DNA from: Raillietiella orientalis
Taxonomy: Eukaryota
Length of the DNA stretch: 64,000 nt
NCBI GenBank assembly: GCA_036172245.1
Contig: JAYWIR010000016.1
Coordinates: forward strand, 2,542,001-2,606,000
Direction of reading: 5' to 3'
The notes under the pieces are model-generated. The model did no database searches, was not told the origin of the DNA, and was given only the letters and a program-made list of their open reading frames with translations. Below are positions 21,070 to 25,444 of this stretch, piece after piece (positions within the stretch are counted from its first letter, which is position 1; each line of letters opens with the position of its first letter). Position numbers and translations under genes: made by a program.

Positions 21070-21171
21070 GCGAGCGTCGCGTCTTCGCTTTAGCGACTGC
21101 TCCGAATCTCCGAAAAAATTATGCGCTAGGTATGTCTTGATATCCATACCTCTCGAACACGTGGTTCAAGT
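21070..21171 (-). pseudogene. RNU11: 5'-truncated U11 snRNA copy (about nt 29 to the end), joined directly to the 3' end of a Tx1-like retrotransposon
   Basis: Minus strand ACTTGAACCACGTGTTCGAGAGGTATGGATATCAAGACATACCTAGCGCATAATTTTTTCGG... is about 85% identical by eye to 25416-25315. It lacks the 5' AAAAAGGGC end. Confidence 0.8.
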
Positions 21172-24100
21172 TTTCCCCAGTCCGACCAGCGGTGGGGTGG
21201 ATTTATTGAGCAAGCAAGAAACATGCAAACAAAAGACACTTTCACTTCGACCATTGCTCGGTCGGTCTCCTTCGTGGCTTTGCGGCCCTCGCGGGCAAGT
21301 CACTGTACCGTTCTGGCGGCGCACTGGGCTATCCTTAAGCAGAGCTGGAGGGTGCAAGATGGCACTCCTCCGCACCTATCAATGACGATTTCTCTGATCA
21401 GAAGTCCTTGCAGGATATATCTGGCGTTGCAGGTGCTGCCCATCGTCAGCTTCGTCCTCCTGATGAGAATGCTCCTCAGAAAGAAGGCGACGATCATCCG
21501 CACGGTGGGATTGTAGTGGGGCACGCCGCCGTCTTCGCTCTCCAACAGTCCCCGGAGGATTTCCAGACACGAGGTGTTGCCCAAACCGATGGCTCGCCGC
21601 ACCACTTTCCAGTCCCGGATAAGGGTGCGGCAAGTGTACATGTGCATGTTGTTTTCGGTCGATCCGCAAGCCGGACACTGGTCGTCGTCGGGGTTCCCGG
21701 TCCAGCGTCGGAATCCCGCACAGGATGCCTCCTTGATAAAACATCAGGAGGCAATCCTGAACTTCCGGCGGTAGAGGGGGCCTCCAGAGCACCGTCGCGA
21801 TGGCCTGCGGGTTGACTCCCGGTTCGCCGAACCTGGCCCGGATCGTGCTCAGCGCTTCTTCCGCGGTGACTGCGGCCAGCATCTGGAAGTTATCGGCTCG
21901 GGCATCACTCTGGAACACTGCGCTCCCTGGGCTTGCCAGAGCTCGCGAGCCCTGTGGGTTACCCAGCCTTGCATCGAGCGCTTGTTCGCCAGGACTCGCA
22001 CCGCTTGGATGACTCCGCTGGTGTCTAGTCGCCCGCAGTCTCTTAGAGTCACGTCGCCTTGTCGACGCAGCCAAATGAGCGTTTTCCAAGGGACCCGGAT
22101 GAACCATGGGATCACCTTGACGAGCTTCCTGTCCCATAATTCCCTGCTTCGCGGGACGATCTTTAGCTTCAGCTCCATCACGAGACTATGGAGCCTCGGC
22201 CAAGCGGAGTCGACGACTTTCCACTGCCAGGGTTTGTGCAACATGGCGGACACGAGACCGTCGCTTTCCAGCAGCATCCTCGCGTACGCCCTGTGAAACG
22301 CGAACGGCCATTCGTTCCAATGGCTGACGTAGCGGGCGAGCAGCTTAAGGTTCTAAAACTTCACAGAATGCGAGATTTCCCGCATGCCGGTGCATCCTTC
22401 GGTCCTCGGGGGACACAGGTTTTCCCTCTTCACTTTTAGTCTTCTCCCATTCCATAGCGAATCACGCTGGATGTTGGCGAGTTCCTTGGCCACCCTCTCC
22501 GGGATCTTATCGAAGGACGTGGCAAAGAGAAACTTCTTCGCGATCGCTCCGTTCCAGAGGTTGGCTTTGCCTCGAAAGGAGAGGTTCATCCCCCTGTACA
22601 GGTGGGTTTGCTACCTCAGCTTGGCGAGGATATCTTACCATTGCGTGTCGTCCGCCGTGTCTTCCTCTCCGATCGTAACCCTCAAGCATTTGACTCTGTG
22701 CACGATGCGGAAACCGTGGGGGCATAGGACGTTGACGTCCGGGTTCCCAACGGCCAGCAGACAGGATTTCTTCGGATTCACCTTCAATCCTAGTCCGTGC
22801 TCCATGGCATCCAGGATATCGAGGAACGCCTCTTGATCCCATTTGTCGGACATGACAAACAGGAGATTGTCGGCGTAGGCCAGTTACGTGATCGTGTCGG
22901 GTTCTTCTCGATCCAGGGTGATGTCCTTGAGCCACCGCTCGTTGGTCACGAGGGCAGCCACCGCTTCCATGTATATGACGAATAGCATGGGGCTGAGGAC
23001 ATCTCCCTGGCGCACTCCTCTTTCCATTTTAATGTCTTCCGTCGTCAGTCCGTTCACGTGCAGCCGAAAATGGGCTGCTTCCAGGATGCGCTCGACGTGC
23101 TGCAGGAATTTCCGTTGAAAGCCCATCTTACGGAGGATACTCGTCAGCATGCCGTGATCAACCGAATCGAAAGCCTTCTCAATGTCAGCGAGCGCGAGTA
23201 CCAGGTCGTTGCTTAGGATGCTGTTGCAACCCAGCAGGGATCAGGAGCTCTTGTTGTCCCACATGCACCTGCCGGACACGACGCACGTCTGGCTGGGCGC
23301 AATCAACGATTTCAAGGTCCTCTTCAGCCTGTTTGCCCAGATCTTGGCCATCCACTTCGCATCCGAGTTGAGGACGGAAATGGATCTCCACTGGTTGACG
23401 GTGCGGAGGTCGTCGCCGCTCTTCGTGAGCAGCCGCATCCTGCCTCGGTGGAAGGAGGCGGGCGGTCGATTTTCCCTGGCGACGCAGTCCAGCAGCTGGA
23501 GGAATAGGCACAGGCAGGCGGACAGGAAGCGCCGGTAGTGCGTGACGGGCACGCCGCCCGGACCTCGCCAAGGGAGAATTCCACGTCCATTTCCGCGATT
23601 TCTCGGGAGCTCAGGTGCTTGTTCACGCTGCGTAGGATTCGTTGCTGAGCTCTCGGCTCCAGGATTCTCTTTTGAAACAGGTCGGTGTAATGTCGCCTGA
23701 AGAATTCCAGAACCTCCTCCGATGATCGGCACTTTCGGCCGTCGTGGTGGACGTAGAAGATTTCGGTCTGGTGGTTGTTCTTCTCCAGCCGTGCGATATC
23801 CTTCTTGAGCCTGCCATCTAGAAAGCGTCTCTGGTACTCTTGCCAGTACTTGGAGTGAGAGAGATGTCGATGGACGGTCTCCCCGTACGCCTCCTCGCAT
23901 AGTACTCTGTCGCCGTACTGCACGTTAGCGAACACGTGGATCATGTGCTTGAGGACATCCCAGTCGTCCACGAGCTCGATTGTAGTCGTGGACATGATGG
24001 TCTCGACGACGCGCTGGTAAGCGGGGTAGCAGGCGAATTACTCGAACATGCAGAGGAGTGCTGCCCGGGGCTCCGCGTGCTCCCTCCTAGGATTCCTCGC

Positions 24101-25290
24101 CTGCATCCGGAACTTCAGCAGGAAATGGTCCGAGAGCCCGGTGTTCAGCTCCCGGATCCCCTGGATGCGGTTATGGAGGGCCCACGAGTGCAGGACGTAG
24201 TCGATCGGCGTCAAGTTCGCCCGGTGTACGCGAGGGCGAGGGCGACGGCCAGCCGCCGGTAGGCATTGGCTCCACCCATTTCGTTCGGTCGGTCGTCTTC
24301 CCAGCTCATGTTCAGATCACCCACCAGGATGAGAACGTACTTCGCCATGATCTGGCTCTTGACGAGGTCCACAAGGGTCCTCGCGAAGGTTCCCTTCCGG
24401 TTGCGCGGTCCGTAGACGTTCACCACGAACACGGAGACTTTGCGCAGCGTCTGCTCGATGTTCCCATTGAACATCTGAAGTGGCCCCCGGTGCTCATGAA
24501 CACCTCCACCCTTCCCTTAAAATGGCAGGAGTCGGCTCTACTGTCCTGCCACTTGAGGGGGAGGGTGGATGCATCTCTAAATAACGGGGGCCACTCTAGG
24601 TCATCCGCCGGGATGCCAAGCAGCTCTCGCCCCATCTTCGTATACCACGAGGGTGAACGCTTGGGGTCGCGGCGTCTGCCAGTTCCCTCATGGTCCACCC
24701 GCTTAGATCCTTCTCCTTGCCCGCTATCCGGCAGGAGACTTGCCACCTCGGCTTCCGGCTGTTATGAAGCGCCCTTCTCAGGAAGGGCAGCGCCGTGGCC
24801 AGTGGGGTCGTCTCCGCCCACGTGCTTCTGGCAGTGCCCTCGATCATGTTCCGCAGCGTGCAGCGGGTGTAGATGCCGGGACGCAGGCGGTTGCAGGATT
24901 CTCCTCCACTAGGCTGGTTTAGCTTCGCCCACGTGCCAACTGTTTCTTCCGGCCATGCGCTGGAGTTGGCGGGGTTGCAGGCCATCCACCCGTCCTCCTT
25001 AGCCAGGGACGCCATGCGTCCAAGGAGCAGGCCGCATCTTCGAATCTTAAACGTCCCGGCGAAACCCGGGTGAAAATCGGCAGCCGCACTGCCCGTGGGG
25101 GAGGCCGCTGCGTGGTGTCCGAAGGACGTGCATCCCCTACAAAAGTCGAGCTGCTGCCGGGAGGAGGTCACCCGCAGCGGCTGCGTGGCACGTTGGTCGC
25201 GGTTCCGTAGGACGCCGTGAGGGAGGTTGACGTTCCACGCAGCCCCCCTGCGGGCGGTTCGTAGGGGAGCATCGGCACCCCCAACACATT
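21172..25290 (-). mobile_element. Degenerate L1/Tx1-clade non-LTR retrotransposon (ORF1 zinc-knuckle remnant, APE endonuclease, RT, C-terminal region, 3' UTR with AATAAA)
   Basis: Knuckle CRGCTSFGHHAAASP (~25150). EN motifs VVNVYGP, LVGDLN, SDHF. RT motifs WRSISVLNSDAKWMAKIWANRL, DIEKAFDSVDH, GVRQGDVLSPMLF, AYADNL (preceded by an in-frame stop). Several frameshifts. 3' end AATAAATCCACCCCACCGCTGGTCGGACTGGGGAAA. Confidence 0.9.
24479..24595. repeat. ~117-nt imperfect palindrome (MITE-like hairpin) inside the retrotransposon
   Basis: AGTGGCCCCCG...CGGGGGCCACT termini, and inner TCCACCCTTCCCTTAAAATGGCAGGA pairing with TCCTGCCACTTGAGGGGGAGGGTGGA. Confidence 0.75.
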
Positions 25291-25313
25291 GCCTTCCTTT
25301 CGCACGGTGAACG

Positions 25314-25444
25314 TCGGGGCGTCGCGTTTTCGCTACAGCAACTTCCCCGATCCTCCAAAAAAATTATGCGCTAGGTATGTCTTGATGTCCATACCTCTGG
25401 AACGCGTGGTTCCAGTGCCACTAGGTAGACAAACGCCCTTTTTT
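25314..25444 (-). ncRNA. RNU11: U11 minor-spliceosomal snRNA, full length (~131 nt)
   Basis: Minus strand AAAAAAGGGCGTTTGTCTACCTAGTGGCAC-TGGAACCACGCGTTCCAG-AGGTATGGACATCAAGACATACCT-AGCGCATAATTTTTTTGG-...CGGGG...GCCCCG. Carries the recalled U11 hallmarks: 5' AAAAAGGGC (pairs with the U12-type 5' splice site), AGTGGCAC, loop GACATCAAGA, Sm site GCATAATTTTTTGG and a terminal stem-loop. Confidence 0.88.

Follow-up and report, generated by a model that had tools for sequence, protein, structure and literature searches.

In a 64,000-nt stretch of the genome of Raillietiella orientalis (the window: contig JAYWIR010000016.1, positions 2,542,001 to 2,606,000, assembly GCA_036172245.1), a retrotransposon lies between a complete and a 5'-truncated copy of the gene for U11 small nuclear RNA (snRNA). 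The retrotransposon is a decayed element without long terminal repeats (non-LTR), and its 3' end meets the truncated copy at the start of a U11 stem-loop. We consider it plausible, at a probability of about 0.55, that the element was targeted to U11 and that its insertion regenerated a complete gene, counting together a variant in which the RNA of the element carried a U11 'head' and a variant in which part of the gene was duplicated. Both U11 copies and the element are on the minus strand, and all coordinates are those of the window. Read 5' to 3' along that strand, the locus consists of the following.

25444..25510, minus strand: region upstream of the complete U11 gene, with a putative promoter/proximal sequence element, as read from the sequence
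25315..25443, minus strand: complete U11 snRNA gene (Rfam RF00548, 80.9 bits, E=5e-13, model positions 1-134)
25289..25314, minus strand: 3' flank of the complete U11, with AAGGCAA at 25295-25289 (read from the sequence)
21172..25288, minus strand: decayed non-LTR retrotransposon of L1/Tx1 type, ~4.1 kb (Pfam reverse transcriptase, endonuclease profile, match to L1 ORF2p)
21170..21207, minus strand: 3' tail of the element, AATAAA and then a conserved hairpin-forming sequence ending in AAAC (match to the tail of a paralogue)
21070..21171, minus strand: 5'-truncated U11 copy, nt 28-129 (Rfam and direct repeat)
21048..21069, minus strand: 3' flank of the truncated U11, with AAGGCAA at 21054-21048 (read from the sequence)

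The whole window contains exactly two Rfam matches at the gathering threshold; each is to U11 (RF00548) on the minus strand, and a search of 19500-27500 at E<=1 returned nothing beyond these two. The complete gene has the 5' AAAAAGGGC that binds the 5' splice site, together with stem-loop I, as seen in the sequence and in the covariance alignment, and an Sm-like AAUUUUUUUGG is visible in its sequence. The second match spans 21244-21070(-). Its 5' part, aligned with low posterior probabilities and a 48-nt insertion, is an artefact, and the true homology is a 98-nt direct repeat (21074-21171 and 25319-25416, 87% identity). The truncated copy is without the first 27 bases, and with them the 5' splice-site-binding AAAAAGGGC and stem-loop I; U11 nt 2-27 do not occur a second time anywhere in the window when up to three mismatches are allowed. 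The element of ~4.1 kb between the two copies has the same orientation as both. Rfam, the direct repeat and Pfam thus bear out a preliminary description of this DNA, which had placed a complete U11, a Tx1-like element and a truncated U11 in this order and at these coordinates, and the two copies that it had called U11 exceed the 39-bit gathering score of the model (80.9 and 47.0 bits).

The 3' junction of the element is at U11 nt 27/28 to 29/30, the start of stem-loop II, as had been described. Its position is ambiguous over 2 nt because the 'AC' at 21171-21170 is common to the element tail and to U11: these bases can be read as the end of the tail or as U11 nt 28-29, and they form a 2-nt microhomology at the junction. 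At the other end, the element begins directly after the 3' flank of the complete U11, with no space for a 5' untranslated region (UTR) of its own before the first ATG (25289-25287), which overlaps the end of AAGGCAA. We infer the 5' end of the element (25288) from the point where flank similarity stops. The similar flanks noted earlier are present as far as this heptamer goes: AAGGCAA lies 19 nt past the complete and 15 nt past the truncated U11, and a shared 7-mer within ±5 nt of the same offset arose in 341 of 20000 shuffles. Little else is shared between the 3' flanks. The spacers from the end of U11 to AAGGCAA are unequal in length (by 4 nt) and, by eye, disagree at about one third of their bases, and an unconstrained local alignment of the two flanks was not significant (360 of 1000 shuffles as good). 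AAGGCAA is a possible U11 3' box. No TATA-like motif was seen by eye near -30 of the complete gene.

The element itself retains the following parts.

25100..25141, minus strand: CX2CX4HX4S in the ORF1 region, zinc-knuckle-like with the last Cys replaced (by eye in translation)
24083..24450, minus strand: remnant of an apurinic/apyrimidinic (AP)-type endonuclease in two frames (hidden Markov model (HMM) from 120 homologues)
22755..23399, minus strand: reverse transcriptase domain (PF00078, E=5.1e-27, residues 52-266 of the reverse transcriptase frame)
21630..21677, minus strand: C-terminal CX2CX7HX3C motif (by eye in translation)

The reverse transcriptase frame (23552-21852) is continuous except for five in-frame stops in 567 codons, and the E-value of 5.1e-27 for RVT_1 was obtained by reading through these stops as X; an uninterrupted piece of 118 aa gives E=1e-11. 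When 11 uninterrupted pieces of the element were searched against Pfam, two contained RVT_1 and nine gave nothing. For the endonuclease, Pfam PF03372 reached only E=0.15, and we used a profile for which 120 full-length homologues supplied their first 300 residues. It matched at 24450-24235 (profile positions 104-182, independent E-value 8e-07, with a GDLN motif) and at 24205-24083 (profile positions 210-250, independent E-value 1.1e-4, with an SDH motif), these values referring to a search space of three frames only; the N-terminal third of the domain was not found with this profile. The remnants lie upstream of the reverse transcriptase, the order seen in Tx1-clade elements. We also observed an imperfect inverted repeat at 24479-24595, with 52-nt arms that are 73% complementary and 13 nt apart; it sits where the N-terminal part of the endonuclease would be expected and may mark a rearrangement. 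Endonuclease remnants, reverse transcriptase and AATAAA (21207-21202(-), read by eye) were all recovered as previously proposed. The ORF1 knuckle that had been proposed with them can be made out by eye, but its last Cys is replaced, and the 244-aa frame of ORF1 has no Pfam match. The element has at least four frameshifts besides the five stops, and is dead.

An alignment of the two U11 parts over 103 positions shows 16 differences, and these preserve RNA structure. A consensus structure from RNAalifold has 22 pairs, all of which are kept in both copies. In two of these pairs both bases differ between the copies, one pair being in stem-loop II (G-C/U-G) and one in the 3' stem-loop (G-C/A-U); one further consensus pair is changed from U-G to C-G. 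Since pairs lost from a single copy go unseen in a consensus, we counted again on the structure of the upstream copy alone, in which the downstream copy has two broken and two compensated pairs out of 25. Sixteen random substitutions would break 5.2 pairs on average; the probability of breaking two or fewer is 0.052, that of compensating at least two is 0.020, and the joint probability is 0.004. The structure-preserving differences are, like the anatomy of the locus and the position of the junction, a matter of observation, and on their account the U11 parts look like two functional variants. To judge from these substitutions, they look like two structurally sound variants with about two pairs' worth of later decay. 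The copies left by a target-site duplication would be identical at insertion, and the promoter-less downstream copy should therefore decay at random. A fresh duplication followed by noise is disfavoured for the U11 parts, although it would become tenable again if the functional copy later underwent gene conversion. The age of the insertion bears on the same question, though less strongly. Decay of the element, estimated from the five stops, gives d=0.08 with a 95% interval of 0.026-0.186; the probability of 16 or more differences at d=0.08 is 0.01, and the upper bound of 0.186 accommodates the divergence of 16/103.

A second, related element lies ~16 kb from the U11 element in the same window.

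37572..38995, minus strand: 5'-truncated paralogous element with the same 3' tail, outside U11 (tblastn, tail match)

This paralogue is 34-56% identical in amino acids to the C-terminal pieces of the U11 element by tblastn, with a protein identity of ~35% between the two elements, and its C-terminal motif is CX2CX7HX4C as against CX2CX7HX3C. Its flanks are not repeated elsewhere in the window, and no convincing target duplication was found around it. The two tails (37572-37609 in the paralogue) are identical at 31 of 38 nt by eye, and a pattern made from the tail has two matches in the window where 0 are expected. Because of this comparison we place the 3' end of the U11 element at ...AAAC. 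That the tail has been kept despite a protein identity of ~35% suggests that it is recognised by the reverse transcriptase.

By sequence comparison the element belongs to the L1/Tx1 superfamily, a placement made at the level of the superfamily and not of the Tx1 clade. Its reverse transcriptase frame matches human L1 ORF2p over residues 5-382 with E=7.5e-33 and an identity of ~25-30%, which makes human L1 its best solved relative. No close relative was found in the protein collections searched (best 24-42% identity). The highest identity from a word-index search was 42%, over 118 aa (36 proteins), a second such search yielded 23-34% (25 proteins), and a HMMER search of 1.84 billion representatives returned 35,314 proteins at E<=0.001, the best 150 of which are only 24-37% identical. 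The best matches have a precomputed architecture of endonuclease, reverse transcriptase and zf-RVT. Those with names are plant L1-like proteins and a reverse transcriptase protein of Xenopus tropicalis; a search seeded with the Xenopus protein turned up no protein labelled Tx1. At the nucleotide level, a corrected pattern for the tail had 0 matches in viral contigs and prokaryote genome contigs, a tail pattern with one mismatch to the element's own tail had 0 matches in metagenome contigs, and 0 loci related to the element were found in viral contigs. A degenerate pattern for the U11 core led us to 18 metagenome loci, seven of which have a full U11. Two pairs of these contigs (L001/L014 and L003/L007) have U11 genes with identical scores and a tRNA gene ~2.5 kb away, and are probably the same organisms sampled twice.

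We tentatively favour a mechanism in which a U11 head, carried by the element RNA, was joined to the target by homology and rebuilt a complete U11, although we would not put this at even odds. An L1/Tx1-type element would have inserted into a U11 gene, in sense orientation, by target-primed reverse transcription. A bottom-strand nick at U11 nt 28-30 would have primed reverse transcription, and the truncated U11 (21171-21070) would be the remnant of the target gene. The element RNA would have had U11 at its 5' end through read-through of a donor locus comprising U11, its 3' flank and the element; alternatively, the U11 part would stem from a template switch of the reverse transcriptase onto U11 RNA. 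The cDNA would then have paired through its 3' end with nt 1-27 of the target, such that a whole U11 was restored before the element. The head, its homology-based joining and any role of the U11 promoter are steps that we infer. This mechanism would account for a full gene that abuts an element with no 5' UTR before its first ATG, for the difference between the U11 parts (one from the donor, one from the target), and for flanks with only a short motif in common. Should AAGGCAA be a true gene flank, mature U11 alone would be a less likely template for such a switch. The preliminary description had offered two mechanisms, a simple target duplication of more than 100 bp and an element carrying part of U11 at its 5' end; the 16 differences in 103 positions and the compensated pairs weaken the former, and the latter fits better. 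It is rather unlikely, though conceivable, that there is a whole lineage of L1/Tx1-type elements specialised on U11, with U11-headed read-through transcripts from the snRNA promoter and an intact U11 rebuilt at every insertion.

Several observations weigh against targeting. A single, dead copy is seen in U11, and one copy cannot show the repeated junction that a targeted family would leave. The paralogue is not in U11: Rfam gave 0 matches at E<=1 across 36500-39500. The 18 metagenome loci had no tblastn match to the 11 pieces of the element, but they come from unrelated organisms and carry little weight. The 3' hairpin that had been described can form in the tail (predicted at -10.3 kcal/mol), with one G-C/C-G flip between the element and the paralogue, but its energy is no better than that of shuffled sequences. 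Promoters of the snRNA type are not known to give long transcripts. Lastly, the substitution pattern that separates the U11 parts is expected equally for tandem paralogues or after gene conversion.

The last of these points leads to the strongest alternative, in which two diverged U11 genes lay in tandem or close together and the element struck the second of them by chance. The insertion would have come with a 5'-side deletion, which took away the promoter and nt 1-27 of that second gene and stopped just past the 3' box of the first. Two functional variants are what one expects of paralogues, and this history would explain the pattern of differences equally well; flanks with only a short common motif are likewise expected of paralogues, a related element sits at a non-U11 site in the same window, and no second copy backs specificity. 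We nonetheless regard chance insertion as unlikely, if a serious contender, since it needs a series of coincidences. A gene of 130 bp must have been struck, in sense orientation, by a near full-length element, and the deletion must have ended 26 nt past an intact gene; neither a second promoter nor a second set of nt 1-27 has left any trace. Moreover, L1/Tx1-type elements are documented in association with snRNA genes (PMC4494074, PMC4640811).

Within the targeting reading, the alternative to a head is that a single U11 gene was cut by staggered nicks ~128 bp apart, which would have produced a long target-site duplication of nt 28-129 plus 26 nt of flank. The duplicated block does end where the element starts, and the interval for the decay of the element (0.026-0.186) overlaps the divergence of 16/103 at its upper end. 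A very long duplication is reported for the rDNA element R9 (listed in PMC5035012), which shows that more than 100 bp can be duplicated; its length is reportedly 126 bp. However, the preservation of RNA structure (joint p=0.004), the low probability of so many differences at d=0.08 (0.01) and the flanks from U11 to AAGGCAA, which differ by 4 nt in length and at about a third of their bases, are all hard to reconcile with copies that began as identical. Without gene conversion, moreover, a roughly neutral rate of change would be required of the functional copy; the upstream copy may have been overwritten later by conversion from another U11. We consider a long duplication improbable. Less probable still is a secondary arrangement, brought about by recombination between element loci, segmental rearrangement or an assembly error, which would make the locus uninformative about insertion. 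No observation speaks directly for it: the junctions are clean, the end of the tail matches that of the paralogue exactly, and at 84% identity the U11 parts are too different for collapse or duplication by an assembler.

Retrotransposons aimed at snRNA genes are few. Those known in 2015 were Keno and Utopia (U2), Dada-U1 and Dada-U6 (PMC4640811), and U5 is also among the targets of Tx1 elements (PMC4494074, Fig. 3 legend). Our full-text literature search found no report that joins U11 with Tx1 non-LTR elements, and PMC4494074, PMC3706591, PMC4640811 and PMC8869645 do not mention U11. Keno, a member of the Tx1 clade that is specific for U2 snRNA genes (PMC4640811, PMC4494074), is likewise a non-LTR element with an AP-type endonuclease inside an snRNA gene. 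Here the target would be U11, one copy is seen, and a whole target gene stands upstream; the likeness to Keno is one of features. Heads of U1 or U2 are carried by Tx1-2_Crp, Tx1-2B_Crp, Tx1-4_AMi and Tx1-11_Crp, and either template switching or transcription from the flanks has been given as their origin (PMC4494074); they are a precedent for the head proposed here. The crocodilian families Tx1-2_Crp, Tx1-4_AMi and Tx1-11_Crp, together with SINEU, resemble our element in having snRNA sequence at the 5' end, but these crocodilian Tx1 families insert in a Mariner transposon (PMC4494074), whereas our element is in the snRNA gene itself. The head in our case would be U11 followed by sequence resembling a gene flank, behind what may be a real promoter.

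Other systems compare in single features. Utopia also targets an snRNA gene, with variable 5' junctions and, in some families, 20-bp duplications (PMC4640811), but it has a restriction-like endonuclease and belongs to a different clade. Co-transcription of the target has been discussed as an aid to specific integration, and in the rDNA elements R2 and R1 upstream target sequence that is co-transcribed helps to form the 5' junction (PMC4494074). The targets of R2, R1 and R9 are highly repeated ribosomal RNA genes transcribed by RNA polymerase I, whereas U11 is a low-copy gene of RNA polymerase II. Human L1 has neither a sequence-specific tail nor an snRNA gene as its target. Kojima's test for target specificity asks that more than 20% of flanks share a junction (PMC4494074).

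The block of U11 and element lies in a GC-rich island (~20250-27000, 50-64% GC) within surroundings of 30-36% GC. GC-rich flanks adjoin the block over ~0.8 kb on its lower side and ~1.5 kb on its upper side (20250-21070 and 25444-27000), and contain no significant Pfam family, no repeats and no L1-like remnants. Elsewhere in the window we identified the following host or other coding pieces.

52667-53260, plus strand: Roquin ROQ-II exon (Pfam E=7.9e-30)
32270-32833, minus strand: MRP-L28-like open reading frame (Pfam E=1.7e-19)
7240-9279, plus strand: open frame of 679 aa with a weak RA domain (Pfam)
44601-45128, plus strand: open reading frame with a zf-CCHC_3 knuckle (Pfam E=1.8e-07)

By eye from the alignment, the Roquin exon is about two-thirds identical to human Roquin-1, a level that points to an invertebrate animal. 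Positions 1-8000 of the window have 60-66% GC and many long open frames on both strands, with no Pfam family among those tested.

The locus may be a first sign of a mobile element aimed at U11 genes, which one copy cannot prove. The authors of the work on Utopia regard a low-copy target as a poor strategy (PMC4640811). It is possible, though we think it rather unlikely, that a lineage of the rebuilding type could live in a low-copy, essential gene without destroying its target. If the reading proposed here is true, a U11-directed, target-restoring element would show persistence in a gene that usually has very few copies, and would tie the heads of snRNA seen in Tx1 elements and in SINEU to the joining of element and target site. 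It would also mean that the host species carries several diverged, structurally sound U11 variants.

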